Shown: positions 1,312-62,127, counted from the stretch's first letter. The stretch: 64,000 nt of DNA from an uncultured Candidatus Saccharibacteria bacterium (GCA_964582295.1 CAZOQP010000001.1:84754-148753), one strand, 5' to 3'. Numbers and translations: made by a program. Notes: generated from the letters alone by a model not told the origin.

Positions 1312-1342
1312 TCCTTCAATTATACAAGGTTTATAACCTGGG

Positions 1343-1458
1343 TAGCGAGAGAATCCTGCCAAAAGAGACTAAGACTTGGGCAAACGCCCCGGAGTGGTCT
1401 CTTTTGGCAGGATTCCCGAGCGACTGCTGTTTGAAAAATGCTGTTGGGTGAGTGGCTT
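1343..1458. repeat. structured intergenic repeat element A, copy 1 (15-bp hairpin stem CCTGCCAAAAGAGAC...GTCTCTTTTGGCAGG plus conserved tail CCCGAGCGACTGCTGTTTGAAA)
   Basis: About 85% identical to 59625..59742. The outer stem differs between copies by compensatory changes. Lies immediately 3' of the pilB stop on the minus strand. Confidence 0.7.
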
Positions 1459-3207
1459 TTACTCAGAAATCCTAAAAACCTCCTCCAAACTTGTAAGTCC
1501 TTCTACTGCTTTAAAAACAGCATCTTCCACAATAGTAAGCATACCTTCGGCACGCGCCTGGCTTTCCACTTCTTCTGCCATATCTTTTGACCTTGCTTTG
1601 GTAATTATGCTTTGCACACCAGCCGATACATACAAAACCTCGTGCACTCCCACATATTCATCTGCTTCTTTATCCATACGCTCATGAAAAGCTTTTACAT
1701 CCTGCCACTCTGCCTTTTTCGCGACTACTTCCTCTTCTTTAAGTGCTGCGAGCACTCTATCCATATCCGCTATTTTATGAAGCGCCCGTAATTCTTCTTT
1801 GGAAATAAGGTGTGCTTCTTTTTCCTTGCCCAGGCGCTTCACTAATTTTCCGCACACCACCACTTTTACAGCGGTAGATACAAGAAACGGCGGTCCTCCC
1901 ATTTCAACCAGATGCGAAAGCGCCTCTGCTGCAGATCCTCCGTTCATTCCGGCAAAAATAGCCCGCCCCGCGAGCACTGCATTCAAAACAACCGAGAGTG
2001 TTTCTTTGTCTCTCAAGTCGCCCACCATCATTGCATCGGCATCTTGCTTCATAAGAGCCCGGAGCCCGAGAGCAAAAGAAAGTCCTGCATCTTCTTTCAC
2101 TTGTGTCTGGTTTATTCTCTCCATCTGATACTCCACCGGATCCTCAATGGTCGCAATATTCACGTTGGGTTTGTTCAAAATATCCAGGATAGTGTAAAGA
2201 GCGGTGGTCTTTCCGGAGCCGGGAGGGCCGGAAACAACTGTTGCACCGCTTCCGCTTTGCATCACGCGATGAAGGTGCTCAAGTCCTGCTCCGTGAAAAC
2301 CTAAAGTTTCCAGAGTAAAGCCCAAAGCTCCCGCTCCAAGCACCCGAAGCAGAACTTTTTCCCCGAAAAGAGTAGGAACTAGAGAAACCCTGAAGGCCGC
2401 CTTCTCATTTTCGTTTTCCATTCTGAAGCGGCCTTCCTGTGGCAGATTTTTTTCATGCAATTCAAGTCCCGCAAGGAATTTCAAGCGAAGGACGATGGGA
2501 AATGCGATCTTTTTCGGCAATACCAGCGCCTCATGAAGCATTCCCCCGATGCGATAGCGCACGCCAAGCTCTTTATCGCGCGGCTCAATATGAATATCTG
2601 CCGCGTGCTGAGCAAGAGCGTGGGAAAGTATCATGTCCACGATATGTGCAATGGCTTTATTATCTGCAAGTTTTTCAAGATCGGCTGCCGGAGAATCTGC
2701 ATCCCCTATCTCCGCCATGCTTTTTGCAAAAATAGCCGCTTCTTTTTCTATTTTCTCGCCAAATTCTTTTTTGAGAACTTTCTGATACACCAAAAGAGCG
2801 TGCTTCATTGAATAGCTGTCCGTAAGGCGCGGCAATATCTTCATCCCCTCTTTTTTCAGGAAGTCCAGAGCGGAAAGTTCTGTGAGATCAAGTAGGGCAA
2901 CCTCAAGCGAGTGCCCACTTTTTTTGAAAGCTACGATGTTTCTGGAGCGGCAAATGGGTTCCGGAACATTTTCCAGAGTTTCAAGGTTGAGAGTTTCTTT
3001 TTTTAGGTCAACGAACGGAATACCTAAAATATGAGCGTGGATGCGGCGAACATCATCCTCCGTCATCAGGCCCTCCTCTCTGAAAATAGAGGTGATATCT
3101 GTTCCCTTTTTCGCAGATTCCTTTTCCGCGCGCGAAAGCTCAGCTTTGGAAACCAATCCAGAGTCTAAAATAAATTCCTTGAACGCCTTTTCGTCAACGT
3201 GCATCAT
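1459..3207 (-). CDS. pilB: type IV pilus assembly / type II secretion ATPase PilB/GspE family
   Basis: N-terminal GspII_E_N-like domain. Walker A VSGPPGSGKTT and the IATIEDPVEY motif. Confidence 0.85.
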   Translation of the reverse strand: MMHVDEKAFKEFILDSGLVSKAELSRAEKESAKKGTDITSIFREEGLMTEDDVRRIHAHILGIPFVDLKKETLNLETLENVPEPICRSRNIVAFKKSGHSLEVALLDLTELSALDFLKKEGMKILPRLTDSYSMKHALLVYQKVLKKEFGEKIEKEAAIFAKSMAEIGDADSPAADLEKLADNKAIAHIVDMILSHALAQHAADIHIEPRDKELGVRYRIGGMLHEALVLPKKIAFPIVLRLKFLAGLELHEKNLPQEGRFRMENENEKAAFRVSLVPTLFGEKVLLRVLGAGALGFTLETLGFHGAGLEHLHRVMQSGSGATVVSGPPGSGKTTALYTILDILNKPNVNIATIEDPVEYQMERINQTQVKEDAGLSFALGLRALMKQDADAMMVGDLRDKETLSVVLNAVLAGRAIFAGMNGGSAAEALSHLVEMGGPPFLVSTAVKVVVCGKLVKRLGKEKEAHLISKEELRALHKIADMDRVLAALKEEEVVAKKAEWQDVKAFHERMDKEADEYVGVHEVLYVSAGVQSIITKARSKDMAEEVESQARAEGMLTIVEDAVFKAVEGLTSLEEVFRISE

Positions 3208-17074: not shown

Positions 17075-17094
17075 CTGGAAAAGAAAATAATGGG

Positions 17095-17133
17095 CACACA
17101 AAAAATAGCGACATGTCGCTATTTTTTGTGTGC
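17095..17133 (+). terminator. rho-independent terminator
   Basis: Perfect palindrome AAAAAATAGCGACATGTCGCTATTTTTT followed by GTGTG. Confidence 0.6.
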
Positions 17134-18255: not shown

Positions 18256-18839
18256 TCGGATGGATGATTCTCCACGTACCCTGCTGGAAGTACTTGTGTC
18301 ATGAGACAAACGGAGTCACCGAACATATTTTCTACCTTGTTTTCTCCGTCTCGGGAAACCCTGTTCTCATGCTCATAGTAGGCCGCGGTATCCAAACGAA
18401 GGAATCTCTGGGACTCTGTTCCTTCAAGACATGGAAGGAGCGGGCCATACTCACTAGCGACAGGATTGCCCAAAGCGAAGATCCTTTGTTCCTTTTGAAG
18501 TTTTGGGAGAAGTTCCGCCAATGCAAGAAGCTCCCATATGGAAGACTTGCGTAACGGCTTCTTCATCTTCCTGCGCAATCTCATGACACTCCGAATTTCC
18601 TTCTGTACTTCGCTCCAAGAAGGCCTGAGCTGGCCTAGAGGAATGAGCTCCAAGCCAACAGAATCTACCCTTTCCCCCCTGCGAGGGAAAAGATCGGAAG
18701 TGAACATTCCTGTCGGAGAATCCTTTGTCCTCCCGGTGATGAGGTCGAAACGCCCCCGTGCCACAACTTCTTCTATTGTTTTCTGCCAGTCAACAACAGC
18801 CGAGTACTCAAGGAACAAACTCCCTATCTTTGTAGGCAT
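18252..18839 (-). CDS. hypothetical protein
   Basis: ORF only. No recognisable motifs. Confidence 0.35.
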   Translation of the reverse strand: MPTKIGSLFLEYSAVVDWQKTIEEVVARGRFDLITGRTKDSPTGMFTSDLFPRRGERVDSVGLELIPLGQLRPSWSEVQKEIRSVMRLRRKMKKPLRKSSIWELLALAELLPKLQKEQRIFALGNPVASEYGPLLPCLEGTESQRFLRLDTAAYYEHENRVSRDGENKVENMFGDSVCLMTQVLPAGYVENHPSE

Positions 18840-18908
18840 ATATCTCTCCTGGAAAAGATCTTCCTACGCTCATTAAATGCCTTTTAGCGGGCGGGGTCAA
18901 CCCCGTAA

Positions 18909-19619
18909 TCAATCAATAGGCGACAGCAGGAAAAGTGCAGCCCCCGCTATAGAAGCCGTTTCAGCCCGGAGGACAGATGGTGAGATTGAAAGCACTTCCA
19001 CTTCCTTTATTTTTGAAACGCTCACTTCCCTCTCGGTGAAACCGCCTTCGGGTCCGATGATAAGACCGACAGGCCCTTCTCCTTTTATATGCGCACTTGA
19101 AATATCTTCTCCTGCCGGATGAAGAAGCATAAGCTTCATGCCTTTGGACTCCGCAAAAACGTTCTCAAAATCTATGGGTTCACGAACTATTGGTATCTCG
19201 GCCCGGCCCGCCTGTTCTGCCGCTTCGCGAACGATCGCAAGCGCACGTTCACGCTTGAATCCTTTTTTCTCGCTCCTATCGGAAACAAATGGCAGGAAAC
19301 GTGAAACTCCGAGCTCTGTTCCCTTTTGAAGGACCCACTCCATGTTGTCCTTTTTTATAAGAGAGAAGATGAGGGTGAGTTCCCGGCGCGGTGCTGTTCT
19401 GCTTTTAGATGCAGAGAGTATCTCGCAGGTTATGGCGTTGTATCCCGCCTCCACGATAAAAGCCATGTATTCATTGCCGGAGCCGTCAAGAAGGATGAGC
19501 TGGCCTCCCACTGTCATCCGTAAGACATTCCTTATCTGGTGCACAAGCTCAGGCTCGCGAAGAATGACCCGCTTGGCCCCGCTCATATCCTCTCCTATGA
19601 AAAAACGATTAAAGCGCAT
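18909..19619 (-). CDS. rsmE: 16S rRNA (uracil1498-N3)-methyltransferase
   Basis: RsmE family N-terminal PUA-like region and C-terminal SPOUT region. Length 236 aa. Confidence 0.75.
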   Translation of the reverse strand: MRFNRFFIGEDMSGAKRVILREPELVHQIRNVLRMTVGGQLILLDGSGNEYMAFIVEAGYNAITCEILSASKSRTAPRRELTLIFSLIKKDNMEWVLQKGTELGVSRFLPFVSDRSEKKGFKRERALAIVREAAEQAGRAEIPIVREPIDFENVFAESKGMKLMLLHPAGEDISSAHIKGEGPVGLIIGPEGGFTEREVSVSKIKEVEVLSISPSVLRAETASIAGAALFLLSPID

Positions 19620-19702
19620 GAGCCTAACTTACAACAAATAACGCATAACGAAAACACATTTGCTTTTGTACGTCATCTGTTATAAGTTTTAGGTTCAAAT
19701 AT

Positions 19703-20302
19703 ATGCTTATACCAACTGTTATAGAAAAAGCTTCCGGAGGAGAGCGCGCTTACGACATATATTCGCGTCTTTTGAAGGAGCGCATCATTTTCCTCGGGGG
19801 GCACATAAACGATGAGGTGGCCAACCTCATCGTGGCCCAGCTTCTTTACCTTGCCAATGAAGATTCCAAAAAAGATATTTCTCTTTATATAAACTCTCCC
19901 GGTGGCTCGGCTTCAGCAACACTTGCCATGATAGACACTATCAACCACATCAAGCCGGATGTTTCGACCGTTTGCGTGGGCTTTGCGGCATCAGGTGGTG
20001 CGTGGCTTCTTTCTTCAGGAGCAAAGGGAAAACGCTACGCCCTCCCAAATGCGGAGATAATGATCCACCAGCCGCTTGGAGGTGCGGAAGGCCAGGCATC
20101 AGACATTGAGATACAGGCAAGGCAGATCCTTGGGCTTAAGGAACGCCTGGCGCGCATAATGTCTAACAACACCGACCAGCCGATAGAAAAGATCCGCAAG
20201 GATATAGAGCGTGATTACTTTATGACGGCGGACGAGGCCGTGAAATACGGAGTGATAGACAAGGTCTACAACGGAAAAGCAAAAATAGATAGTTCAAAAT
20301 AA
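19703..20302 (+). CDS. clpP: ATP-dependent Clp protease proteolytic subunit
   Basis: Typical ClpP sequence ([20 protein letters not shown]..., catalytic Ser/His region). Confidence 0.9.
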
Positions 20303-22475: not shown

Positions 22476-22481
22476 TATCTG

Positions 22482-22552
22482 TGCGGGACGGGAGAATCGG
22501 ACTCCCACCTACAGTTTGGAAAACTGTCGTTCTACCACTAAACTAGTCCCGC
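22482..22552 (-). tRNA. tRNA-Gly (anticodon TCC)
   Basis: GCGGGAC acceptor stem, anticodon loop TTTCCAA, T-arm GGGAGTCCGATTCTCCC. Confidence 0.85.
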
Positions 22553-22574
22553 TTTATGAGCTTTTGAATTATAA

Positions 22575-22862
22575 CTACTCTGCCAATTTCTGCACCTCTT
22601 CAAAATTATCTTCCGGCCGTATGGCCGCATTTCGTTTGAAGCCGCATGAGATGCATTTGTGAATGATCGCAATAGCCACTCCCCCTTTCGTTTCCACCCC
22701 CACCGGTTTCATCATCCCTTCACATAGCTCTGCCCTGTCTCCGGGGTCAACATCCACATGCTTAGACCAGAGGCATTTCGGACAATGGTTGGTATACCCA
22801 TTCCCCTTCACCTCATTCCCGCAATTTTCGCAAATAAAATTTTCTTTGGTCCTTAAAAACAC
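22575..22862 (-). CDS. RNHCP-domain zinc-ribbon protein
   Basis: ORF 22575..22907 contains CENCG...YTNHCPKCLWSKH...CISCG. The track's TTG start lies inside tRNA-Gly(GCC), so the true start is probably the GTG at about 22862. Confidence 0.45.
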   Translation of the reverse strand: MFLRTKENFICENCGNEVKGNGYTNHCPKCLWSKHVDVDPGDRAELCEGMMKPVGVETKGGVAIAIIHKCISCGFKRNAAIRPEDNFEEVQKLAE

Positions 22863-22867
22863 TTTGT

Positions 22868-22938
22868 GCGGCCAGGGAGAATCGGACTCCCATCTCGTCC
22901 TTGGCAAGGACGCGTTCTACCACTAAACCATGGCCGCG
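22868..22938 (-). tRNA. tRNA-Gly (anticodon GCC)
   Basis: GCGGCCA acceptor stem, anticodon loop TTGCCAA, T-arm GGGAGTCCGATTCTCCC. Confidence 0.85.
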
Positions 22939-22987
22939 CATTAAGAACTCTAGCAAAAAAGCACTCCCCTCTCAATTATCAATTATG

Positions 22988-23058
22988 TCGGGCTGCTGGG
23001 AATCGAACCCAGTTCTTGCGAACCCGAATCGCATATACTACCGGTGTACTACAGCCCG
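22988..23058 (-). tRNA. tRNA-Pro (anticodon CGG)
   Basis: CGGGCTG acceptor stem, anticodon stem-loop TGCGA-TTCGGGT-TCGCA, T-arm CTGGGTTCGATTCCCAG. Confidence 0.8.
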
Positions 23059-23144
23059 TCTGTAGAACCTTCAGAATATATCACACAGGCCTTAAATAAA
23101 CATAAATTGAGAGTTTATCGGCTGTAACGTATGATGGCTCACAC

Positions 23145-23216
23145 GCACCCGTGGTGAAATGGATATCACAACGGTCTTCGGAACCGTTGTTGTGGGTTCG
23201 AATCCTGCCGGGTGCA
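23145..23216 (+). tRNA. tRNA-Arg (anticodon TCG)
   Basis: GCACCCG acceptor stem, anticodon stem-loop ACGGT-CTTCGGA-ACCGT, GGGTTCGAATCC T-loop region. Confidence 0.75.
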
Positions 23217-23237
23217 CACGCGAGAAAAACGCACTAG

Positions 23238-23308
23238 CGGGATGTAGTATAGCGGCAGTATTTACCCATGGGGTGGGTAAGGCCCGGGTTCAATTCCCGG
23301 CATCCCGA
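23238..23308 (+). tRNA. tRNA-Pro (anticodon GGG)
   Basis: CGGGATG acceptor stem, anticodon stem-loop TACCC-ATGGGGT-GGGTA, T-arm CCGGGTTCAATTCCCGG. Confidence 0.8.
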
Positions 23309-23358
23309 AATATCTAATTCCGTGCGCTCATGCCAAAACTTTGGCACTATGTAGGCAG

Positions 23359-23429
23359 CGGGACGTAGTATAGTGGCAGTATATATGCTTTGGGAGCATA
23401 GGGTCCGAGTTCGATTCTCGGCGTCCCGA
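23359..23429 (+). tRNA. tRNA-Pro (anticodon TGG)
   Basis: CGGGACG acceptor stem, anticodon stem-loop TATGC-TTTGGGA-GCATA, T-arm CCGAGTTCGATTCTCGG. Confidence 0.8.
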
Positions 23430-23660
23430 AATCAGAAAACAGAATGTGTCCGATTGGTGTCCTAAAGAAAAATGAACCTTTTCACTCCCCTTCCGGAAAA
23501 ACGGCTCTACAGCAAAGAAATTCCACAATATATTCTTTATTTGGGAATGGAATCTGTGGATAAACTTGGGGACATGTGTATTAGAAAGCTTGACTGTCCT
23601 ATAGCTTTATTGCAAAAAGTGGCTGTGGTTAGCCATTTTTGCTTTTGGGTCTCTCACATA

Positions 23661-25614: not shown

Positions 25615-25978
25615 ATTGGATGGGAGATTAAGTTTCACATTGTTTCTACCGTTTCACACTAAACATACATAAACAAAACACCCGCCGCAGTTGCGACAGG
25701 TGTGGTGGAAGGGCGATCGAGATAGGTGCAGGTGCACTCTCTGCGACCCAAAAATTTTAGATGTTTGACGGTGCTGTGAGTTTAAGCGCCCGACATATCA
25801 AGATCGTCTTCCGGCGCGATCGGGCCATAAGGATCTACTGCGTTGGCGATCCTTGAGGGATTGGGTCTCAATTTCTGCCAAGCTTCTAGCCAACATGATA
25901 TACCTAAAGGACAAAATGTCTATGTGGATAACTCAAGGATAAAAGACATTTTGTCCTTTAAATCTAAAAGACGGGCGA

Positions 25979-29048: not shown

Positions 29049-29969
29049 CTATTTGCGTCTTCCGTGGAACTTCTTATGTATTTCTTTCAAATGACTGTCA
29101 GTAAAGTGTGTATATATTTGTGTAGTGGAAATACTGGCATGGCCGAGAAGCATCTGAACGGAACGCAGGTCGGCCCCGTTCGAGAGTAGATCCGTGGCAA
29201 ACATGTGCCGCAAGACATGCGGAGTAACCTTCTTAGAGATACCGGCTTGGATTGCTCTATCCTTGATAATACGTTCAACGGAGCGACTTCCCAAGGGGCC
29301 TGCTACTTTCCCCATTTGAGTAATCCTCACTAGAAGCGCTTCTTCCATGTCCTTGCGAGCTTTCAAATAATCTTTGATAGCTTTGAGTGCCCCCTCGGAG
29401 ATAAAGACCACGCGGATTTTGCCACCCTTACCCTTGATAGGGAACTCGCCAGCCTGGAAATCAATATCTGTCGTGAGCGAACAAAGCTCGGAAACTCGCA
29501 AGCCGGTAGAAAAGAGCAATTCAAGAATTACTCGGTCCCGTAAATTCTTAATATCATCTCCTTTAGGTGAGTCCATGAGCCGGGCAAGCTCGGCGGGAGA
29601 GATGAGATCTAGATGTCTCTCGCTAACCTTAGCGAGGTCGATGTATTCTGCTGCTAGAGTCTTCACTCCCTGTTTGGCTAAGTACTTGAGGAAGGCCCTA
29701 AGAGCAATGAGGTAGTAGTTCTGGGTCTTCCTAGACAGAGTTTCATTGTGTGGCGACTTGTGGCCCGTAGATTGCCTGTTGAGCCAGAGGCGGAATTCCC
29801 GCACTGAATCAGCAGAAATATCCGAAGCATTCTTTATTTTGGAATGTTCCAGAAACCTTGAAAGGTACCTGTCGTAATTTTCAATAGTTTTGAGACTCCG
29901 GCCCTTTTCTATTTCCGTATATTCCAGAAATTGGCGCTTTAATTTTTCAAGTTCGGTTTGAGATGTCAT
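29049..29969 (-). CDS. xerC: tyrosine site-specific recombinase XerC/XerD family
   Basis: C-terminal catalytic region HVLRHMFATDLLSNGADLRSVQMLLGHASISTTQIYTH, carrying the RHRY-type residues. Confidence 0.8.
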   Translation of the reverse strand: MTSQTELEKLKRQFLEYTEIEKGRSLKTIENYDRYLSRFLEHSKIKNASDISADSVREFRLWLNRQSTGHKSPHNETLSRKTQNYYLIALRAFLKYLAKQGVKTLAAEYIDLAKVSERHLDLISPAELARLMDSPKGDDIKNLRDRVILELLFSTGLRVSELCSLTTDIDFQAGEFPIKGKGGKIRVVFISEGALKAIKDYLKARKDMEEALLVRITQMGKVAGPLGSRSVERIIKDRAIQAGISKKVTPHVLRHMFATDLLSNGADLRSVQMLLGHASISTTQIYTHFTDSHLKEIHKKFHGRRK

Positions 29970-31052: not shown

Positions 31053-32459
31053 ATGAATGGCGATAATACTCGCGAAAACACAGGACCTTCGGATGGTGCG
31101 AAAGAAATAAAACCCGTTTCCGGCACACCTCAATTTGAAGATGACACTGTGCAGGCGCTTCTCGCCAAAGCACGGGAAGAAGCTCAAAAAAGGGCTCGCA
31201 TAACAGAGCAAAGCGGGGGAGTAATGCCAAATGTGGTGCCTGGGGTAAGAACACAGATCCGTGAGGAAGCGCCGGGAGCAAAGATCGCCTCTCCGGCGGA
31301 ACCTGAACCGCAAACTATTGTTATTGAGAGTGAAGAGGTAAAAGAGCCGCAACCAAAGGCGCCTTTGGTTGCGGCTCAAACCCCGCCCCCGCCTTCTGTA
31401 CAAGAAATTCCCTCTATACCAACAGAGTCTCCAGTTGCCGCAGAGCCGGCATACAAATCTCCCCTTAAAAATCTGCGCACTTACCAGGGAGATGTGGCGG
31501 AGGCCCTGAAGGACAGCAATGCTTCAATGCTCTCTATCTCCCTTGCGGCACGAAAGAAAAAAGAAAAAGAGCCGCCACCCACACAAACACCAATTGAAAG
31601 AAAGCGGGAGAAGAAAAACACCATGCTTGCATTGAGTTCGGCACTCCTTTTGGTCATCGGCCTTTCAATATTGGGAAGTTTGTATTACGTACATGTCCAA
31701 AATCTTCCGGTGCCTGTCATTGAGCCGCCGCGAAGCATCATTAGTTTTGACAGAGAGACGGAAATTCTTTCGAATGGACTGACAAAAGAAAAATTCCTTT
31801 CTGTAGTGGAGGATATAAAGAACGACCCCAAAGAAAAAAATAAACCGGCCAGCAGCATCACCTATCTTCATATAGTAAAGCGCGCAAGCACTACTCCAAC
31901 TATCATCGTTACTGATTCCATAAACGGATCAGAATTTTTATCTTTACTGAAAAGCCGCGCCCCTATTTCACTTACGAGATCTTTCGTATCCTCTTTCATG
32001 CTCGGCCTTTATCGCGGCAGAAATAACGACGCTTTCATTCTTATAGAACTGTCTTCCTACGAAAATGCTTTTGATGGGATGCTTTCGTGGGAAAAAAATA
32101 TGTGGGGAGACATAGGTGCCTTGATGTCTCCGAAAATTATTTCTGTGGTGAGCGCACCGAATGCGCCTCTTGCAACAACAACCGCGAGCACTACAGCTGT
32201 TGCCACAACCACACCTGGGACAGTCGCCACAACAACAGCAACTACTACTCCTATAGTTCCTTTAGTCCCCGTAATATCAGTGAAAGAATCCTTCATTGAT
32301 AAGGTCATATCAAACAAGGACACAAGGGTGCTTTCCACTTCCTTCGGGGAAACTGTCCTGGTTTACGGCTTTGTAACCAAGGACCTCCTTCTCATAGCAT
32401 CATCGGAGGAAACCTTTAAAGCTATACTTGACAGGGCTTTCGCCGCAGAAGCCCAATAG
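31053..32459 (+). CDS. membrane-anchored hypothetical protein with Pro-rich N-terminus and Thr-rich segment
   Basis: Single TM (LALSSALLLVIGLSILGSLYYV). Low-complexity ATTTASTTAVATTT region. Confidence 0.4.
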   Translation: MNGDNTRENTGPSDGAKEIKPVSGTPQFEDDTVQALLAKAREEAQKRARITEQSGGVMPNVVPGVRTQIREEAPGAKIASPAEPEPQTIVIESEEVKEPQPKAPLVAAQTPPPPSVQEIPSIPTESPVAAEPAYKSPLKNLRTYQGDVAEALKDSNASMLSISLAARKKKEKEPPPTQTPIERKREKKNTMLALSSALLLVIGLSILGSLYYVHVQNLPVPVIEPPRSIISFDRETEILSNGLTKEKFLSVVEDIKNDPKEKNKPASSITYLHIVKRASTTPTIIVTDSINGSEFLSLLKSRAPISLTRSFVSSFMLGLYRGRNNDAFILIELSSYENAFDGMLSWEKNMWGDIGALMSPKIISVVSAPNAPLATTTASTTAVATTTPGTVATTTATTTPIVPLVPVISVKESFIDKVISNKDTRVLSTSFGETVLVYGFVTKDLLLIASSEETFKAILDRAFAAEAQ

Positions 32460-32895: not shown

Positions 32896-34458
32896 ATGAG
32901 CTTTGCGAAAGTACACAGCGCTCAAACAAGAATGCTTTCCGCAGACATCATTGATGTAGAAGTGGATCTTTCGCGCGGACTTCATTCATTTTCAATAGTG
33001 GGCTTGCCCGACAAAGCAACCGAAGAAGCCAAGGACCGCATAAGTGCCGCCATAAAAAATTCCGGTTTCACTTCTCCCAAACAGAAAAATCAGAAAATAG
33101 TCATTGCACTCGCCCCGGCCGAGATAAAGAAAGAGGGTTCAGGTTTTGATGTGGCGATGGCGCTCGGATATCTGATGGCAATAGGCGATCTTGAAGAGAG
33201 TATGGAAAAAGATGCATTGTCGGCGGAAGAAGTGCTGAAGAAAACAGTATTTTTGGGAGAGCTTTCTCTAGATGGCATCTTGCGGCCTGTCAAAGGAGCT
33301 ATTGCCCTTGCGCAAGTAGCCCGCACCAACGGTTTCGCGGAAGTAGTGGTTCCTTTTGAGAACAGGGAGGAAGCGGCGCTCATTGACGGCATAAATGTCA
33401 TCCCTGCTCGCACGCTCACTGACGTTATTAATCATGTGCGCGGCGAAAAGATTCCGACACAGCCAAAGACCGAAGTGAAATTCCCGGAACGAGAAGAAGA
33501 AATAACATTTGATGATATCGCAAGCCAGGAAAGTGCAAAAAGAGCCCTTCTCATAGCGGCGGCAGGCATGCATAACATTGGCCTTTACGGCCCGCCCGGC
33601 ACAGGAAAAACCATGCTCGCGAAAGCTTTCCGTTCTCTTTTGCCACCGCTCTCTGACGACGAGATATTGGAAGCCACGAGTATTCATTCCATTGCCGGCA
33701 CTTTGAAAGAACCGTATATGGTGGAGCCGCCTTTCCGCTCTCCGCATCACACAGCATCTTACGTGGCGCTTGTTGGCGGTGGAGCAAATGTGAGACCGGG
33801 TGAGATTACTTTGGCGCACAGAGGGGTTCTGTTTTTGGATGAATTCGCAGAATTTGAAACACGCGTACTTGAAACTTTGCGTGAGCCGCTTGAAGAAAGA
33901 AAAATTTCCGTATCACGAGCAAAAGGAAGCGCCGTTTTTCCCGCGCATTTCATATTGGTAGCAGCTCTCAATCCATGCCCTTGCGGAAACCGGGGATTCA
34001 AAGGACCTGCGTGCGTCTGCGCAGGGAAAGATCTGATGCGATATGAAAGAAAGATATCAGGGCCGATACTTGACCGTATTGATATGTGGATTTCAGTACC
34101 GCGAATAGAGCATGAAAAACTGCTTTCAAAAAATGAGAACAAAGAAAATGAAAGGTTCAAAGAGGAAGTGAAAAAAGCGAGAGCGAAGCAAAGAGAAAGG
34201 GCAGGAAAATTAGGCTTGCAGGGTATGTGGAACGGAGCTTTAGGGGTGCGAGACGTGGTGAGGCATCTCACTTTGTCTGAAAACATTAAAAATGTTCTGA
34301 ACAATGCGGCAAAAACAATGAATCTTTCGCCGCGCGGATATCACAAAGTGGTAAAACTCGCGCGAACCATTGCGGATGTTAAAGAAAGAGAAAATATAGA
34401 AGAAGAGGACATTTTGGAAGCGCTAAGCTTCAGACCTCCGAAGACTGCTTTGGGATGA
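32896..34458 (+). CDS. comM: Mg-chelatase-like AAA+ ATPase YifB/ComM family
   Basis: Lon-like N-domain, Walker A GPPGTGKTMLAKA, Mg-chelatase subunit ChlI-like core and C-terminal domain. Confidence 0.85.
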   Translation: MSFAKVHSAQTRMLSADIIDVEVDLSRGLHSFSIVGLPDKATEEAKDRISAAIKNSGFTSPKQKNQKIVIALAPAEIKKEGSGFDVAMALGYLMAIGDLEESMEKDALSAEEVLKKTVFLGELSLDGILRPVKGAIALAQVARTNGFAEVVVPFENREEAALIDGINVIPARTLTDVINHVRGEKIPTQPKTEVKFPEREEEITFDDIASQESAKRALLIAAAGMHNIGLYGPPGTGKTMLAKAFRSLLPPLSDDEILEATSIHSIAGTLKEPYMVEPPFRSPHHTASYVALVGGGANVRPGEITLAHRGVLFLDEFAEFETRVLETLREPLEERKISVSRAKGSAVFPAHFILVAALNPCPCGNRGFKGPACVCAGKDLMRYERKISGPILDRIDMWISVPRIEHEKLLSKNENKENERFKEEVKKARAKQRERAGKLGLQGMWNGALGVRDVVRHLTLSENIKNVLNNAAKTMNLSPRGYHKVVKLARTIADVKERENIEEEDILEALSFRPPKTALG

Positions 34459-34468
34459 AGACGTCGCT

Positions 34469-34634
34469 CAGATAATACCCTTTTTCACACAGCAGTCGCT
34501 CGGGGTGATGACGAAAAGAGTACGCATAAAAATCTGCTGATTTTTTGCTCACCCTCGCGCCGTCGCGCTGCACAGCCTCTTTTCGTCATCACCCCTCGCT
34601 CTAAATAACTCTAGTGTGAAAAAGGGTATTATCT
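34469..34634. repeat. nested palindromic MITE-like repeat element B, copy 1 (outer IR AGATAATACCCTTTTTCACAC/GTGTGAAAAAGGGTATTATCT; inner 25-bp stem GTCGCTCGGGGTGATGACGAAAAGAG)
   Basis: Inner 108 bp is 98% identical to 59469..59576. The left edge CACACAGCAGTCGCTCGGG is shared with the reverse complement of element A. Confidence 0.7.
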
Positions 34635-34666
34635 TCGCTTCTTAAGTACCAGAACTTAAAGCGAGG

Positions 34667-34699
34667 AAAATATACGTAGGACAGTCCTACGTATATTTT
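34667..34699. terminator. bidirectional terminator (serves the M23 peptidase gene on the minus strand)
   Basis: ATATACGTAGGAC-AGT-CCTACGTATAT hairpin with T-tracts on both strands. Confidence 0.55.
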
Positions 34700-34733
34700 G
34701 TAGCGGAGGACATGACTCGCTCCTTAAGTAAAA

Positions 34734-50087: not shown

Positions 50088-51284
50088 GTGAACAAAAAAC
50101 TTATAATTTTAATTCTTGTTGTGATCCTCATCGGGGGAGGAATTTCGTTTTTCTTTCTCTCTAAAAATACGACGACGGCACCCGCTGTAGTTACCGGGAC
50201 TGACAGTCCTTTTGGTGTGGGGAGAGCGGGGGAAAGGGCGGGCGAGCCGGCAGAGCAAAATAATAATGAGAATACTAATTCAATATCCGTAAATCAGGAC
50301 GGAGTGGTCATAAAGAAAATAGTTTCAGAGCCGGTAGCCGGTTTCATATTTATAGGCAAAGGAGCTTCAACTACTATCCGGTATGCCGAACGCGGGAGCG
50401 GACGCGTGAATGATATTTCTCTAGGTACCACTCCTGAAACCCAAAAAGTAACAGGTGACACCCAATCTCGCATCGTATCTGCTGTATTCCTAGAACAAGG
50501 GAAAGGTCTTTTGAGGTTCAAAGAAACCGATACGGGATCAGTTACCGCCTTGTATTCAAAAGTAGCCACATCCTCAGTAAGTAAGGAGATATCAGGAACT
50601 ATTTTAGACCTTGATGTCACAGCGGATGGGAATAAAGTCATATTCGTATTTGAAGACGAACTTGGCTCTGCCATAACAACCGCGAACGGGGACGGGACAG
50701 GCGCCCAAGTGGCATGGAGAAGCTCTCTTCAGGAATGGCTTGTGCAAGGTCTTAATAAAAATGTCATCTCTATTCAGACAAAGTCCGCAAGGGGTATGCC
50801 TGGATCAGCATTTATTATTTCGGGCGGCGCCTCCGAATTATATCTTTCAGGGCAAAGCGGTTTCAGAGCCATGGTAAGCCCAGACGGAATGTTCGCGGTC
50901 TTCAGCGACTATACAAACACGGCTTCGCCCGTGCAGATTTATGATAAAGAGGCGGAAGAAAAACGCGGACTATTTCTCAATACTCTTCCTGAAAAATGCG
51001 TGTGGTCCAATATAAAAGCAGACGGTCTTTATTGCATAGAATTCGCCGGACGGAACACTGGTCTTCCGGACATTTGGTACAGAGGAGAAATATTTTTGAA
51101 TGCAGGCAAAGTGTGGAGAATATCCGCCAAGACAAACATTGAAGAATCTTTGGCCGACCTCGGAAGCTTGAATGAAGCTATTGATGCGATAGAGCTTGGC
51201 TTATCTTCAGACGAACAGTGGCTCGGATTTATGAATAAAAGAGATTACTCTCTGTGGGTGATAGATCTCTCGGGAGCTAACTAG
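50088..51284 (+). CDS. membrane-anchored exported protein, beta-propeller-like, hypothetical
   Basis: N-terminal TM anchor (LIILILVVILIGGGISFFFL). TolB/WD40-like segments (VSPDGMFAVFSDY). Confidence 0.4.
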   Translation: MNKKLIILILVVILIGGGISFFFLSKNTTTAPAVVTGTDSPFGVGRAGERAGEPAEQNNNENTNSISVNQDGVVIKKIVSEPVAGFIFIGKGASTTIRYAERGSGRVNDISLGTTPETQKVTGDTQSRIVSAVFLEQGKGLLRFKETDTGSVTALYSKVATSSVSKEISGTILDLDVTADGNKVIFVFEDELGSAITTANGDGTGAQVAWRSSLQEWLVQGLNKNVISIQTKSARGMPGSAFIISGGASELYLSGQSGFRAMVSPDGMFAVFSDYTNTASPVQIYDKEAEEKRGLFLNTLPEKCVWSNIKADGLYCIEFAGRNTGLPDIWYRGEIFLNAGKVWRISAKTNIEESLADLGSLNEAIDAIELGLSSDEQWLGFMNKRDYSLWVIDLSGAN

Positions 51285-52008
51285 TCGCAACAGTTATATT
51301 TTGTCCGCCAGCTGGCGGAGCAAATTTTTTCTTTAGATAAAGATCCTGAATGATGGTTAAAATATTTGAAGTCGTCCAATAAAGACCAACTACGCCGGAT
51401 ATCTGCCACGACACAACGAAAGCAAGGATGGGGAATATCACTCTCATTTGGATTTTCATCATGCGCGCAAGCGCTTCGTTCTTGCCTCCTATATCCTGGG
51501 CCGCGCTTGAAAGATGTATCTGGATGTAGCTCGTAATACCTGCAAGGATAGCAAGGACGAGACTTTTCTCAGTAAGCACTGCTAGCCCTAAGAAAGACAT
51601 ATCTATAGCCGCAGGATACGGAATGAAGCTATACAGAAGGTCAGCATTAATAACAGGTAAACCGGACTGGACCAGAATGTAGTAGAGGCCGAAGATGATC
51701 GGTATCTGGAGAAAAAGAACCACGATGCCGGAGAATGGATTGGTTTTTGATTCCGAATAAACCTCCATTATTTTTTTTGCCTGCATTTCCTTATCGTTGG
51801 GGTACTCGGCTTTGATGGCTTCCATCTTCGGCTGGAGACGTTTCATTTCCATTTGCGAGCGATAAGCTTTTTTTGAAAGAGGGAAGAGTATGAGACGCAC
51901 TATAAAAGTGAAAATGATGACCAGAAATCCTGCATCAAGAGCCGGGAAGAGGTCCGCGAGAAGAATGAAGATGTTGTAGAGCGGCTGGGATATAAGGGTG
52001 CGGAACAT
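51277..52008 (-). CDS. yidC: membrane protein insertase YidC (short Gram-positive type)
   Basis: YidC/Oxa1 core helices. Position immediately downstream of rnpA. Confidence 0.85.
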   Translation of the reverse strand: MFRTLISQPLYNIFILLADLFPALDAGFLVIIFTFIVRLILFPLSKKAYRSQMEMKRLQPKMEAIKAEYPNDKEMQAKKIMEVYSESKTNPFSGIVVLFLQIPIIFGLYYILVQSGLPVINADLLYSFIPYPAAIDMSFLGLAVLTEKSLVLAILAGITSYIQIHLSSAAQDIGGKNEALARMMKIQMRVIFPILAFVVSWQISGVVGLYWTTSNILTIIQDLYLKKKFAPPAGGQNITVATS

Positions 52009-52015
52009 ATATGTA

Positions 52016-52351
52016 TTATGTATTTTTTACGGAAAGAAGTCCTGCGGAGCGGAGAAGATCTATTGCATCTTTCTCAAGAACTTCTCTTTCAGCACGGGAT
52101 TGTATGGAAAAGAAAATACGGGCGAGAGGAATATCTTTTTTCACGGAAGCGATGGCCCTATAGACGGCGCGCCTCATGCGATTCCTCGCCACTGCCGACT
52201 TTGCCACTTTTTTTGAAACGGAAACTCCGGCCTGAAGAACGTTTGCCGGAGAAACGTATTTCAAAAAAAGAACTTTTCCGCGTAAAGACCTGCCGCGTGA
52301 GACCACACTAAGGACATCTTTTCTCGACAGACGATTTTTCTTTGCGAGCAT
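52016..52351 (-). CDS. rnpA: ribonuclease P protein component
   Basis: KKNRLSRKDVLSVVSRGRSLRGKVLFLKY ... RNRMRRAVYRAI is the typical RnpA sequence. Confidence 0.85.
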   Translation of the reverse strand: MLAKKNRLSRKDVLSVVSRGRSLRGKVLFLKYVSPANVLQAGVSVSKKVAKSAVARNRMRRAVYRAIASVKKDIPLARIFFSIQSRAEREVLEKDAIDLLRSAGLLSVKNT

Positions 52352-52485
52352 TAGACGGAGAGGCTCTTTCTGCCCTTTCTCCTCCGGCGAAGGAGGGTTT
52401 TTCGGCCTCCGGGGGTTGCCTTGCGGGTCAAAAACCCGTGGCTTCGCTTTCTTTTTTTCTTTTTAGGCTGGTATGTCTGCGACAT
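52351..52485 (-). CDS. rpmH: 50S ribosomal protein L34
   Basis: Not in the ORF track (44 aa). Manual translation gives [44 protein letters not shown]. Its stop overlaps the rnpA start (TAATG). Confidence 0.85.
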
Positions 52486-52613
52486 GTTGTCTTGATTTAA
52501 GAGTTATGTTGTTATTTTCTTATGCACATTTCGTCCACACATTATTACCACAATTAACGGATATCTTCAACTGTACGTGGCGTCTCCCACCTATATACTT
52601 AACGTCCAAGATT

Positions 52614-53954
52614 ATGGACACCCGAGTACTCTGGAACAACATTTTAAACGATATCGAGCTAGCTGTCTCCAAAGCCACTTTCAATACATGGTTCCGGGAC
52701 ACTTTCATACTCAAGTATGACGACGGCACCGTTTCCGTAGCTGTCCCCAACAATTTTGTAGAAGAGTGGCTCAAAACCAAGCATCACGGCCTTATTTTGA
52801 AGCTCCTACGCACTAAAGATGACTCCGTGCACGCACTGGAATACGTGATCGCCAAGGATGATCGCCTGAAGAGAAGGGAAAAGGAGATGCGTATAGACAG
52901 AGAGTCGTCTTCTCTCCCTCTAGGCGACCTTATAAACCGGGATGACAACCTCAACCCACGTTATACATTTGATTCATTTGTCATCGGACCGTTCAATGAG
53001 CTTGCTCACGCCGCAGCACAAGCCATCATTCGCCAGCCAGGCCTCACATACAACCCCCTTTTCATATACGGCAACACTGGCCACGGCAAAACCCACCTTA
53101 TCCAATCAATAGGCAACGCCCTCAAGGCCGCACACAAAGAAAAGAGAGTTCTTTACATCACGTCGGAACGCTTCGCATCAGACATCACAAGCTCCATTCA
53201 GACGGGCAAGATTGCCCAAGTGAAGGATAAGTACCGCACCTTTGATACTTTGATCATGGACGACATCCAATTTTTTGCGAACAAGGAAAAAACCCAAGAA
53301 GAACTTTTTCATCTTTTCAATTCCCTATACGACAACAACAAGCAGATAGTCTTTTCATCAGACAAGCACCCGAATCTCATCCCGAACCTTGAAGACCGGC
53401 TGAAATCGCGCTTTGCTCAGGGAATGACCGTTGACATCCAACCACCTGATTTTGAATCACGTCTGGCGATCCTTGCTAAAAAAGCGGAGCTTATGGGTTT
53501 TTGCCTCGGGGAAGAGGTGTGCGGATTCCTTGCGAACACCATTACGGGAAATATCCGGGAGCTTGAAGGTATTTTAAACTCCATTGTCATGCAGACACAG
53601 CTTAAGGGAAAGGAGCTCACCATAAACGACATCCGCAACCTTGTGAAAAGCAACCTGAAACCAAAGAGAATGATCGCTCCTAAGGAAGTAGTGAAGATGA
53701 TCGCAGATTTTTATCATGTGGAAGAGGAAAGCATCTATGAAAAGACACGCAGGAAGGAAGTTATAAAGCCGAGGCAGATAGCCATGTACATTTTGCGCGA
53801 GGATTTCAATATTTCTTATCCGTCCATTGGAGAGAAGCTTGGTGGAAGGGACCATACCACAGTCATACACTCGTGCGAGAAAATAAAAAATGACATCAAG
53901 CTCAATACGGAGCTTTTGGAGGAGATAAACCAACTCCGCACCATGATCACCTGA
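52614..53954 (+). CDS. dnaA: chromosomal replication initiator protein DnaA
   Basis: ORF 52473..53954. Likely start MDTRVLWNNILNDIELAVSKATFNTWF (domain I). AAA+ Walker A GNTGHGKTHL. C-terminal DNA-binding domain IV. Confidence 0.9.
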   Translation: MDTRVLWNNILNDIELAVSKATFNTWFRDTFILKYDDGTVSVAVPNNFVEEWLKTKHHGLILKLLRTKDDSVHALEYVIAKDDRLKRREKEMRIDRESSSLPLGDLINRDDNLNPRYTFDSFVIGPFNELAHAAAQAIIRQPGLTYNPLFIYGNTGHGKTHLIQSIGNALKAAHKEKRVLYITSERFASDITSSIQTGKIAQVKDKYRTFDTLIMDDIQFFANKEKTQEELFHLFNSLYDNNKQIVFSSDKHPNLIPNLEDRLKSRFAQGMTVDIQPPDFESRLAILAKKAELMGFCLGEEVCGFLANTITGNIRELEGILNSIVMQTQLKGKELTINDIRNLVKSNLKPKRMIAPKEVVKMIADFYHVEEESIYEKTRRKEVIKPRQIAMYILREDFNISYPSIGEKLGGRDHTTVIHSCEKIKNDIKLNTELLEEINQLRTMIT

Positions 53955-54190
53955 TAAAAATGTGTGTATAGGGTGTGGAAAGGTGGGGGTACTCACGGTG
54001 TGGAAATTCTTGATAAAAAAAGTAAGGTGGGGAAGGGGGTTGTAAGATTTATTCTTCTCAACCGTCTTACACTCCCTAATCACCACCAAGACAGATTGAG
54101 TTAGATGATAAAAACGGCTTAAAATATAGGTATTACAGAATTATCCACACATCCACACCCCTAAGAGTAGTAATTATCTTCTTATATAAA
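53955..54190. other. candidate oriC (dnaA-dnaN spacer with DnaA boxes and AT-rich unwinding region)
   Basis: Perfect TTATCCACA at 54141..54149. Box-like TGTGGAAAG/TGTGGAAAT at about 53973 and 54000. AT-rich tract just before dnaN. Confidence 0.5.
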
Positions 54191-55288
54191 ATGAAAATAG
54201 AATGTATTAAAGAAAAGATTTTGGATGCAGTAAGTAAAGCTGAAAGATTTACTGGTAGGAATGCTACCCTTCCTACTCTTTCAGGAATTCTTCTTGAGGC
54301 ATCAGAGGGAGAATTAAAAATAAAAGCTACGAACCTTGATCTTGGTGTGGAAATATCCATTCCATGCAAGGTTCTGAAAGAAGGAAAAGTTTTGGTGCCT
54401 GGTACCCCTTTTCTACAATTCCTTTCCCATGTCCGTGGAGAAAAGAATGTTGTCCTAGAACTCAAAAACGATGTGCTTTCATTTTCTTCACAACTTGAAG
54501 ATGTGAAATTTAAAACACTTTCTCATGAAGATTTCCCTGTTATTCCAAGAACTCAAACTTCTTCCATTCTCTCCATTGATGCCAATCTCCTTTCTTCGGG
54601 CTTAAAAGGGGCCGCCTTTGCAGCTTCGCCCTCCAGTATGAAGCCGGAGCTGTCGAGCGTTTATTTGTACGGTGAAGGGGAGAATGGAGTGTGTGTAGGC
54701 ACCGACTCTTTCCGTCTCGCTGAAAAGAAAGTGAAGCTTAAGGATTCTTTTGATGGTGCCATTCTTATCCCATTCAAAAACGTTACAGAACTTTCCCGCA
54801 TTCTTGATTCAATGCACGGAAAAGTGGATCTTGGTATCTCAAAAAATCAGATATCCCTTGAAGCCGATGGGGTTTATGTGGTTTCCCGCACAGTTGAAGG
54901 ATCTTATCCTGATTACCGACAGATAATTCCCAAGGAGCCGACCACTGAAATAGTTTGCCTCAGAGAAGACTTGGAAGACGTGCTTAGAGCGGCAAGCCCC
55001 TTCACTGATAGGTTCCACCAAATCACTTTTGAAGTTGATCCGAAACAGAAACAATTCTCCATTTCAAGCCGAAGCCAGGACACGGGTGAATTAACGGAGA
55101 AAATAGAAGCCGCAATTTCGGGTGACCCTATAACCATTCATTTTAACCACAAGTATGTTTCAGATGGTCTGCAGGCCGTAACCGGCGACAGCGTGTCTAT
55201 TTCCCTTAATGGCGCAGGCAAGCCGGCTATTCTCAAAGGAGTGGGGGACCAGAATTTCCTATATGTAATGATGCCGATGAATCGGTAA
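54191..55288 (+). CDS. dnaN: DNA polymerase III beta sliding clamp
   Basis: Three-domain clamp. N-terminus MKIECIKEKILDAVSKAERFTGRNATLPTLSGILLEA. Confidence 0.9.
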   Translation: MKIECIKEKILDAVSKAERFTGRNATLPTLSGILLEASEGELKIKATNLDLGVEISIPCKVLKEGKVLVPGTPFLQFLSHVRGEKNVVLELKNDVLSFSSQLEDVKFKTLSHEDFPVIPRTQTSSILSIDANLLSSGLKGAAFAASPSSMKPELSSVYLYGEGENGVCVGTDSFRLAEKKVKLKDSFDGAILIPFKNVTELSRILDSMHGKVDLGISKNQISLEADGVYVVSRTVEGSYPDYRQIIPKEPTTEIVCLREDLEDVLRAASPFTDRFHQITFEVDPKQKQFSISSRSQDTGELTEKIEAAISGDPITIHFNHKYVSDGLQAVTGDSVSISLNGAGKPAILKGVGDQNFLYVMMPMNR

Positions 55289-59179: not shown

Positions 59180-59416
59180 CTATACCTCGTCTTCGTCCTT
59201 GCCGAAGCCGTGGCCGAACTGGTCTTTCTCATCATCGTCATCCTCTTCATCAAGCTCTTTCGCGATGACTTCGTCTATATCAACAATCTCCGGGTCATCA
59301 AGGTCGCCCGGTAGGACCTCATCGGCTTCTTCCTCTTCCTCCTCTTCTTCTGCCTGAAATTCTGGTATATCGTTGTCGCTCATATTTTTATTTTTAAGGG
59401 TTTCCCCGTACGCCAT
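59180..59416 (-). CDS. small highly acidic hypothetical protein
   Basis: ORF 59180..59503; the upstream part overlaps repeat B2, so the start is probably MAYGE (59416). Poly-Glu/Asp stretch EEEEEEEEADE...DEEDDDDEKD. Confidence 0.35.
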   Translation of the reverse strand: MAYGETLKNKNMSDNDIPEFQAEEEEEEEEADEVLPGDLDDPEIVDIDEVIAKELDEEDDDDEKDQFGHGFGKDEDEV

Positions 59417-59468
59417 TTGTATCAAACGAGTACCATTTTGCAATAGAGATAAAGAGGGGGTGTGGATT

Positions 59469-59576
59469 ACGTCGCTCGGAGTGATGACGAAAAGAGTACG
59501 CATAAAAATCTGCTGATTTTTTGCTCACCCTCGCGCCGTCGCGCTGCACAGCCTCTTTTCGTCATCGCCCCTCGCT
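59469..59576. repeat. repeat element B, copy 2 (inner palindrome only)
   Basis: 106/108 identical to 34493..34601. Confidence 0.7.
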
Positions 59577-59624
59577 CCTTGAGAATTTTAAAGCGAAGCC
59601 AACAACATCTTTCATACTAGAGCT

Positions 59625-59742
59625 ATTTAGAGTGAGAGAGTCCCACTAAAAGAGACTAAGACCCGGGGCACGCCCCGGAGTGGTCTCTTTTAGTGGGACT
59701 CCCGAACGACTGCTGTTTGAAAGATACTGTTGGCTGAGCGAC
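59625..59742. repeat. structured intergenic repeat element A, copy 2 (17-bp stem GTCCCACTAAAAGAGAC/GTCTCTTTTAGTGGGAC)
   Basis: Matches 1343..1458 with compensatory stem changes. Ends at the ruvC stop codon. Confidence 0.7.
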
Positions 59743-60748: not shown

Positions 60749-60752
60749 ATTT

Positions 60753-62118: not shown

Positions 62119-62127
62119 TGTTTTCTT

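Follow-up and report, generated by a model that had tools for sequence, protein, structure and literature searches.

The 64-kb stretch of DNA analyzed here in full (CAZOQP010000001.1:84754-148753, hereafter the window) comes from an uncultured member of the Patescibacteria (candidate phyla radiation, CPR) in a poorly sampled, Paceibacteria-like lineage; the named best matches of its PilB and RuvB proteins are Parcubacteria, Zambryskibacteria, and Paceibacterota. It carries a family of structured hairpin repeats, which a first-pass annotation had described as a two-copy element and of which we found four copies at three loci (A1, A2, B1, and B2). We regard this family, with moderate confidence, as lineage-specific, non-coding, non-autonomous palindromic repeats of the class formed by miniature inverted-repeat transposable elements (MITEs), BIMEs, and REPINs, and not as a conserved regulatory RNA. 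These units were copied or relocated in the genome, and their insertion sites adjoin or lie within gene 3′ ends; their stems have stayed paired. They belong to no named family; no sequence match was found in the collections searched.

At the ruvC locus, a filled site can be compared with its empty orthologous counterpart. A RuvB search led to a clade of closer relatives with 76-84% identity (L016-L025, ~65 kb of non-redundant DNA), four of which (L016, L020, L024, and L025; RuvB 78-82% identical) were compared with the window at this site. In all four, the ruvC stop codon and the gene for a small acidic protein are separated by 77-87 nt that contain no hairpin: a spacer of 8-12 nt is followed by a conserved promoter-like block, TATTGCA...TTTGATAAAAAAGGCGTACGGGG, and then by the ATG. 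The window retains the promoter-like block, with 272 nt (59471-59742, minus strand) interposed that consist of A2 and an inverted B2; minus these 272 nt and one GTAA, its sequence is collinear with all four relatives. At its two ends the composite carries GTCGCTC...GAGCGAC, a perfect 7-bp inverted repeat, and a 4-bp direct repeat, GTAA, lies on either side of it (TTAC on the plus strand, 59467-59470 and 59743-59746); 4 nt would match by chance at such pre-defined boundaries with a probability of ~0.004. The GTAA at 59743-59746, on the left, supplies the present ruvC stop codon. The empty site of the relatives reads T(T/A)ATCCACA, and AATCCACA downstream of the insert matches their TATCCACA, making it a remnant of the ancestral 3′ end of ruvC; in the relatives this segment encodes a YPQ(K) tail, which is the C-terminal end of RuvC in three of the four. 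RuvC in the window ends THS-ACAR*, as compared with THS/THN plus 7-11 residues in the four relatives, and is 3-7 residues shorter. A2 thus abuts the ruvC stop codon because the insertion entered the very 3′ end of the gene. The TCGCTC motifs that bracket the hairpins (described below) are not target duplications, since the motif does not occur at the empty sites.

Several other features of this neighborhood were recorded. A mechanically called 107-amino-acid open reading frame (59180-59503) overlaps B2; judging from the alignment with the relatives, the small acidic protein (EEEE-rich, ~68 amino acids, no Pfam match) actually begins near 59383 (MSDND...), downstream of the conserved promoter-like block TATTGCA-N17-TGATA(C/A)AAA. 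The order in L016, L020, L024, and L025 is ruvC(-) yebC(-) tsaE(-) PilB2(+) ruvB(+) polA(+), PilB2 being a second PilB-like ATPase gene. At 59743-63855 of the window, every gene lies on the minus strand, the segment PilB2-spacer-ruvB being inverted, and yebC and ruvB have no tsaE between them. This inversion or rearrangement is specific to the lineage and lies 1-4 kb or less from where A2 and B2 inserted.

The B copies were traced from a one-mismatch match to the conserved tail of A1 and A2, found on the opposite strand at 34483-34498. B1 (34463-34640, plus strand) is a full nested element of subtype B that starts 4 nt past the comM stop codon (34456-34458), in the spacer between the convergent genes for comM and a LysM-M23 peptidase. 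B2 (59471-59577, plus strand) is a core-only copy of the same subtype, inverted with respect to A2 and 13 nt from it. B1 and B2 share 98% identity over 107 nt, and the identity has its limits exactly at the GTCGCTC...CTCGCT brackets, beyond which the flanks are unrelated; the core has therefore been recently copied as a unit. Two uncompensated single transitions separate them, as expected for recent mutations.

For family searches we used a frame pattern (GTCGYTCGG-N8-12-AAAAGAG-N28-58-CTCTTTT), nhmmer, and a covariance model, R1, and the DNA examined was extended beyond the window by 10 kb on its left (Logan contigs, SRR6868922), giving 74 kb in total. The pattern matches exactly four places (A1, A2, B1, and B2) against 0 expected by chance, and the A and B subtypes are homologous over their whole length (nhmmer E=7e-12). 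By all three methods the 74 kb, including the added 10 kb, hold no further copy, and the total of four at three loci corresponds to about one locus per 25 kb. The window likewise contains no other TCGCTY clusters or AAAAGAG...CTCTTTT hairpins.

All copies follow a common plan, read here in the orientation of the B copies, that is, on the minus strand for A1 and A2. Its 5′ side consists of GTCGCTC followed by AG, an outer arm of ~20 nt, AGCA, a second GTCGCTC, GG(G), a 9-nt variable block, and AAAAGAG; after the apical module, the 3′ side continues with CTCTTTT, the complement of the variable block, CYC, TCGCTC, TAAATARCTCTA, the complement of the outer arm, and TCGCTT. The basic unit is thus a hairpin of ~95-108 nt with GG(G)/C(Y)C at the stem base, bracketed by direct TCGCTC motifs, and in full copies (150-180 nt) this core is nested in an outer 21-bp hairpin bracketed by the same motif. 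In every hairpin the direct brackets stand at a fixed 2-3 nt from the stem foot. A2 and B1 are full, A1 is without the 3′ outer arm, and B2 consists of the core alone. As variable block, A1 has AATCCTGCC, A2 has AGTCCCACT, and B1 and B2 have GTGATGACG; the apex is a 31-nt module with a small G+C-rich hairpin in subtype A and an unrelated module of 56 nt in subtype B. Full copies fold as single long hairpins, B1 at -85.3 kcal/mol (z -11.6) and A2 at -78.5 kcal/mol (z -9.3).

In B1, both the outer stem (21 bp, 34470-34490 with 34614-34634) and the stem of the core (19 bp, 34502-34520 with 34577-34595, core 34495-34602) are perfect, and the bracket motifs start at 34463, 34495, 34597, and 34634. 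The B2 stem pairs 59478-59496 with 59553-59571 between the brackets GTCGCTC (59471-59477) and CTCGCTC (59571-59577). Beside B1 lies a mosaic of motifs (34634-34731), with six TCGCTY sites within 254 nt (P ~0.006 under a uniform null); its parts include a mini-palindrome, TCGCTTCTTAAGT-ACCAGA-ACTTAAAGCGA (34634-34664), a terminator-like hairpin (34666-34700), and a second TCGCTCCTTAAGTA (34717-34730). Across the window, 6 of the 11 GTCGCTC sites (6 expected) lie inside elements. The motif was considered as a DNA-uptake sequence, a possibility that we rejected, GTCGCTC not being enriched outside the elements.

The two copies first described are both present, at 1343..1458 and 59625..59742 as reported, with two corrections: in register they occupy 1344-1458 (A1) and ~59631-59744 (A2), and their identity is ~83% (94 of ~113 aligned positions) where about 85% had been given. 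Global alignment at the literal coordinates gives 78% because the second copy is offset by ~5 nt; of the blocks that align without gaps, one of 75 nt has 87% identity and one of 37 nt has 81%. The limits first assigned were also incomplete, the unit reaching past them into the second, outer stem. The central stem has 21 bp (1351-1371 with 1395-1415 in A1; 59638-59658 with 59681-59701 in A2), and we confirmed the strings that had been cited as covarying in it, CCTGCC/GGCAGG and CCCACT/AGTGGG. The copies differ at four pairs; each of these has transitions on both sides and is Watson-Crick in either copy, and one-sided changes are absent. The loop and tail described as conserved match exactly in both copies (tail CGACTGCTGTTTGAAA). 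Shuffled sequence folds far less stably than either hairpin (hairpin z -5 to about -7; 0 of 200 shuffles as good). Their reported abutment to the stop codons of minus-strand genes holds as well, the copies beginning 0-2 nt beyond the stops of pilB (1459-1461) and ruvC (59743-59745); Pfam confirmed both genes, a PilB-type ATPase (1459-3207, minus strand) and RuvC (59743-60291, minus strand).

A1 (1335-1458, minus strand; R1 score 97 bits) lies between the pilB stop codon and the start, at 1311, of the triosephosphate isomerase gene (tpiA) downstream, both boundaries being supported by Logan gene calls. It consists of the 5′ outer arm (1429-1448, minus strand CCCAACAGCATTTTTCAAAC), which is homologous to the outer arm of A2, and the core hairpin (1351-1415) with its 21-bp stem and an apical mini-hairpin (1372-1394); the 3′ outer arm is missing or degenerate. 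The variable 9-bp block pairs 1352-1360 with 1406-1414 (AATCCTGCC/GGCAGGATT), and the loop-proximal block AAAAGAG/CTCTTTT is constant. The 5′ bracket, GTCGCTC on the minus strand, occupies 1418-1424 (plus strand GAGCGAC), and its 3′ partner reads AGCGAG on the plus strand at 1344-1349. A2 (59591-59742, minus strand), the full nested element directly after the ruvC stop, has an outer stem (59597-59617 with 59715-59735) whose arms are 86% complementary, the core variable block AGTCCCACT/AGTGGGACT, and brackets at 59736-59742 (GAGCGAC) and 59591-59596 (AAGCGA).

For covariation statistics we imposed the two helices (40 pairs) on a four-copy alignment. Two-sided changes occur in 14 of the 40 pairs with 92.5% of cells paired, and, for the inner helix, in 8 of 19 pairs with 98.7% paired. 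These pairing values were reached by none of 500 shuffles, and sliding the 3′ partner by 1-3 columns lowered pairing to ~45-56%. The pairing of the stems is actively maintained, or restored by a templated process. The covariation in this family nevertheless identifies no RNA strand: both strands are about equally stable on RNA folding, G-U pairs in the predicted folds favor neither strand consistently, and a manual tally of single-side transitions gave four for one strand and four for the other. By itself the covariation does not point to an RNA. The first-pass annotation had suggested selection on RNA or DNA structure, with a 3′ untranslated region (UTR) element and a mobile MITE-like repeat among the options. 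The inference of maintained pairing stands and is strengthened by two-sided changes in 14 of 40 pairs; the 3′ UTR option is weakened, and the mobile option is favored by the occurrence of four copies at three loci, the 98% identical core in unrelated flanks, the empty site, and the 4-bp repeat. That annotation had also held that its proposal would fail if the copies showed only random decay, or if the element were confined to the two loci and not conserved in relatives. The relatives do lack it, but it occurs at more than two loci and shows clear covariation.

The units share four of the properties that define MITEs: they are short and non-coding (107-178 nt, with reading frames that are mostly interrupted by stop codons and none that is open across all copies), they have terminal inverted repeats (21 bp and perfect in B1, the outermost arm bases differing between copies), they are dispersed, and they provide a filled and an empty site. 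Mobilization would be in trans, by an enzyme encoded elsewhere in the genome. Two mechanisms each fit part of the data. One option is a DDE transposase that makes 3-4-bp (G)TAA duplications, which would fit the inverted ends of the composite and the duplication at the ruvC site. Pairing may be kept since the hairpin or inverted repeat would be the enzyme's recognition feature; alternatively, arm-to-arm correction in an extruded hairpin might keep the arms complementary, or the covariation could come from selection on the transcript. The copies are probably co-transcribed as 3′ UTR or intercistronic hairpins, because they lie between a stop codon and the next promoter (A1 and A2/B2) or a terminator-like hairpin (B1). 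An effect on mRNA stability or processing is possible and would be secondary.

Several observations weigh against this interpretation. The evidence base is four copies only. The comparison of a filled with an empty orthologous site covers one of the three loci (ruvC), which is also the only one with a recognizable flanking duplication, none being evident for B1 or A1; even there, gain in this lineage rather than loss elsewhere would rest on parsimony across four relatives. These relatives are fairly distant, and absence of the family from them is compatible with a young host function. Among ~60 open reading frames scanned with Pfam, the window contains no transposase, Y1/RAYT, or TnpB gene, nor do the 10 kb to its left. 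Finally, the outermost arms differ between copies, and the internal-loop region and loop-proximal stem are the most conserved parts. In a typical DDE-type MITE the pattern would be reversed, and the one seen here is reminiscent of structured RNAs that have conserved internal loops.

The second option for the enzyme, which we consider possible but unlikely, is an HUH/Y1 protein of the IS200/IS605 or RAYT type that would recognize the single-stranded hairpin and cut and rejoin at TCGCT^C on both sides. Since each insertion would bring a new TCGCTC site, this would account for the nesting and the direct-repeat brackets. It fits the fixed distance of 2-3 nt between bracket and stem foot in every hairpin, the termination of the B1/B2 identity exactly at the TCGCTC motifs, the nested and mosaic architecture with its motif cluster between the comM and M23 genes, and the freedom of the stem sequence to vary provided that pairing holds; a parallel between IS608 and REPINs has been drawn (PMC3116915). 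The motif travels with the unit, because the empty sites in the relatives have no TCGCTC, but for the same reason the ancestral ruvC target offers no such site for cutting. Also opposed to an HUH enzyme are the lack of a Y1/RAYT gene in the 74 kb, arms that are not themselves REP-like palindromes, and the classical-looking 4-bp GTAA duplication around A2 and B2, which HUH transposons do not make. A bolder form of the idea, to which we attach a low probability, is a self-nesting hairpin transposon of CPR bacteria, of a type not yet described and with a distinct TCGCTC chemistry, excised and re-inserted at TCGCT^C by an HUH-type or other enzyme. If true, each insertion would be a new target and would give rise to nested, mosaic arrays, and such arrays would remodel gene 3′ ends, as at the ruvC stop codon, and seed deletions or inversions, as with the loss of a pilC-pilin block at A1 (see below).

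A cis-acting RNA selected by the host, a 3′ UTR or intercistronic hairpin of the pilB, ruvC, and comM transcripts, would be compatible with a mobile origin, and we judge it rather improbable. Such an element would shield the upstream mRNA from 3′ exonucleases, serve as an RNase III site, or act as an insulator, and the covariation would be the outcome of selection for the RNA fold. All copies but one are indeed co-oriented with the upstream gene and start 0-4 nt beyond its stop codon; the perfect 19-21-bp stems and the outer 21-bp stem are long enough for RNase III; and B1, being upstream of the hairpin at 34666-34700, would sit within the comM 3′ UTR. Internal-loop sequences are the most conserved while the helices covary, and for ERIC and Correia repeats, effects on the stability of mRNA or on its cleavage by RNases have been reported (PMC3184786, PMC2649163). 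Against this, B2 is antisense to its neighboring genes, the element is absent from the ruvC site of the four relatives and from all relatives' DNA examined, the two strands fold equally well and G-U pairs favor neither consistently, no U-tract terminator is predicted in any copy, and comEC, recJ, a second pilB-like gene, and uvrD, all in the 74 kb, have no copy. A structured 3′ UTR RNA whose conserved asymmetric internal loop recruits a protein that co-regulates the DNA-uptake and recombination genes pilB, comM, and ruvC is less likely than the self-nesting transposon.

Independent small-RNA genes on the plus strand, antisense to pilB and ruvC, are very improbable. Segments of A1 and A2 of 131-133 nt do fold 6-7 kcal/mol better on the plus strand, and two U-G pairs of the A1 apical hairpin exist on that strand only. 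However, full-length A2 folds equally on both strands, the B copies are oppositely oriented, promoter prediction at A1 and A2 returned nothing promoter-like for either strand, Rfam gives no match, and the element is not conserved in relatives. Integron attC-like or other tyrosine-recombinase sites, brought to mind by imperfect palindromes directly after open reading frames whose structure is kept more than their sequence, by the variable apical module, and by A-type outer arms near core sites (GTTGGGT = GTTRRRY; AGCCAAC one position off RYYYAAC), are effectively refuted by context, as B1 and B2 have no R′/R″ core sites, the neighbors tpiA, pilB, comM, and ruvC are single-copy housekeeping genes and not cassettes, there is no intI or cassette array, and an Xer-like gene lies ~5 kb from B1 and ~28-30 kb from the other copies.

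Other assignments were tried and rejected. An intrinsic terminator does not agree with the copies, none of which has a predicted terminator-like site and in which the 3′ arms are followed by CYCTCGCT; neither a sigma-70-like promoter nor a hairpin with a U-tract terminator is predicted inside any copy. Half-elements are no better than shuffled sequence as single-stranded DNA (z -0.2 to +0.4); not being palindromes, they do not form a REP doublet. GTAG is present in A1 only. Diversity-generating retroelement template/variable repeats and retron msr/msd were discarded, as the copies do not differ specifically at adenines and have no reverse transcriptase near them: the Pfam scan of the window showed neither a reverse transcriptase nor an integron integrase. 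The sole recombinase in the window is the XerC/D-like gene (29049-29969), and a conjugation-like PrgI/TraG cluster lies at 44.8-47.8 kb. In one relative, L016, a bAvd gene stands beside a reverse transcriptase (RVT_1) at 18684-20064 (ENA ERZ1292616 contig Hain_H52_01um_R1_72), a pairing that is a hallmark of diversity-generating retroelements; nothing similar occurs in the window.

Searches for the family elsewhere were negative within their scope. With R1 and nhmmer, no copy was found in the loci of more distant relatives (L013-L015) or in the ~65 kb of the closer ones, a 17-bit match in L014/L015 being an ordinary terminator. Against Rfam 15, only tRNAs were found at gathering thresholds, and matches at E<=10 were sub-threshold, mostly to eukaryotic miRNA/snoRNA models (<=24 bits against thresholds of 37.6-118 bits). 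When GTDB species genomes, JGI metagenomes, and IMG/VR were scanned for exact occurrences of GCAGTCGYTCGG-N10-AAAAGAG and of the frame pattern given above, the 3 and 6 matches returned had no arm complementarity and are attributable to chance. Two viral scans with the apical sequences and blastn against phages and plasmids found nothing, and six-frame translations compared with 5.8 billion predicted proteins, for spurious open reading frames over the copies, gave nothing at E<=10. A two-term literature search on miniature inverted-repeat elements in Patescibacteria returned only two incidental co-mentions.

The gene order around A1 departs from that of two distant relatives, in which pilB is followed by pilC, four or five pilin-like or unannotated genes, and then tpiA-pgk-HIT-recJ (L013 3053-8258; L014/L015 11761-16187). 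In the window the order is pilB-[A1]-tpiA-pgk-HIT-recJ; pilC was not found in the 74 kb, and the pilC-pilin block (~4.4-5.2 kb) is absent there. A1 is truncated exactly after its 3′ TCGCT, at this junction (1311-1459), which suggests, and does not prove, that it marks a deletion junction.

The Logan short-read assembly, made independently from the same sample (SRR6868922), breaks at the hairpin apex in both A1 and A2 (L011 end, L012 start, L004 end). The two contig ends at A1 overlap by 15 nt only, and A1 and A2 share at most 22 nt of exactly matching sequence, which would be shorter than the Logan k-mer size of ~31. The breaks suggest either hairpin-related loss of coverage or further near-identical copies elsewhere in the genome. 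Because short-read contigs break at both A-type apices, these repeats may hinder assembly.

A second structured region, separate from the family, was noted in the spacer between PilB2 and ruvB (61794-62127; core ~61860-62040). This spacer, of 280-420 nt, is retained in all relatives (L016 9650-10000, L020 9684-10000, L021 493-829, L024 5340-5618, L025 5613-6035) and contains a conserved structured region of ~170 nt with a closing 25-nt stem (61871-61895 with 62011-62035); RNAalifold gave 55 pairs, 8 with two-sided changes. It has no Rfam match (window at E<=1; three relatives' loci at gathering thresholds), and it is a candidate unannotated non-coding RNA of this CPR clade.

Perfect palindromes of 17-20 bp are found at 17094-17133, 31344-31377, 25905-25960, and, directly after the PilB2 stop codon, 62084-62127; two have no loop spacing. 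They look like bidirectional terminators, and their sequence is unrelated to the element family. Six tRNA genes of 71-72 nt lie on both strands within 1 kb (22480-23430), two of them (22482-22552 and 22867-22937) being 74% identical to each other. A yidC-rnpA/dnaA-dnaN arrangement, typical of a replication origin region, is located at 51277-55288; the cumulative GC skew has its minimum near 16-20 kb and not at the dnaA region, and the skew is weak.

CPR/Patescibacteria have small genomes, in which mobile DNA is usually regarded as scarce. Hairpin repeats in the end of ruvC and at a missing pilus block would show miniature mobile elements shaping reduced genomes. For the discovery of non-coding RNAs, the family is a caution that a functional RNA is not established by clean compensatory changes alone, since these are equally a feature of palindromic mobile DNA. 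Should the TCGCTC-bracketed nesting be the product of a distinct transposition chemistry, this family would offer a handle for finding the enzyme.

Among known systems, attC sites are alike in keeping their fold with a variable stem, in a variable apex, and in a position directly 3′ of an open reading frame; the present family differs in having no R/L boxes conserved across copies, no integrase or cassette array, and housekeeping neighbors. PATEs, which derive from IS200/IS605, are comparable in that recognition would depend on a hairpin and on a short cleavage motif at a set distance, and they can target specific short sequences. Each PATE, however, has a left-end and a right-end hairpin, which are subterminal, differ from each other, and lie in direct orientation, and its insertion duplicates no target, whereas the family described here is a single symmetric foldback with one insertion flanked by a 4-bp repeat.

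The resemblance to REPINs and BIMEs, the REP doublets mobilized by the Y1 enzyme RAYT, extends to a hairpin of inverted halves, conserved blocks split by a covarying stem, a motif by the stem foot, and alternating orientation (A2/B2), and a single-stranded DNA hairpin substrate is plausible. Compensatory changes across the arms of REPINs are reported to be common, and their hairpin has been proposed as an enzyme substrate (PMC3116915). The units in the window differ in that their halves are not REP palindromes, GTAG is not conserved, the brackets are direct and not inverted, the 74 kb contain no RAYT gene, and the copy number is apparently low.

Hairpin MITEs such as Correia/CREE of Neisseria, ERIC/IRU of Enterobacteria, bcr1 of the Bacillus cereus group, RUP, and Nezha offer the remaining comparison. 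The present family differs from them in the lack of sequence similarity in the searched collections, in termini that are less conserved than the internal loop, in the direct TCGCTC bracket of each hairpin, in nesting, in having no cognate insertion sequence or transposase in the 74 kb, and in its CPR host. MITEs typically fold as long stem-loops, sit at gene 3′ ends, and are co-transcribed (reviewed in PMC3184786), and RNA-level compensatory changes have been reported for bcr1 (PMC3184786). The family is like these elements in being a non-coding near-palindrome of 100-180 nt, in its confinement to intergenic DNA, often at gene 3′ ends with expected co-transcription, in size variants produced by an internal module, in compensatory changes, in presence or absence among relatives, and in one short T/A-rich flanking repeat.

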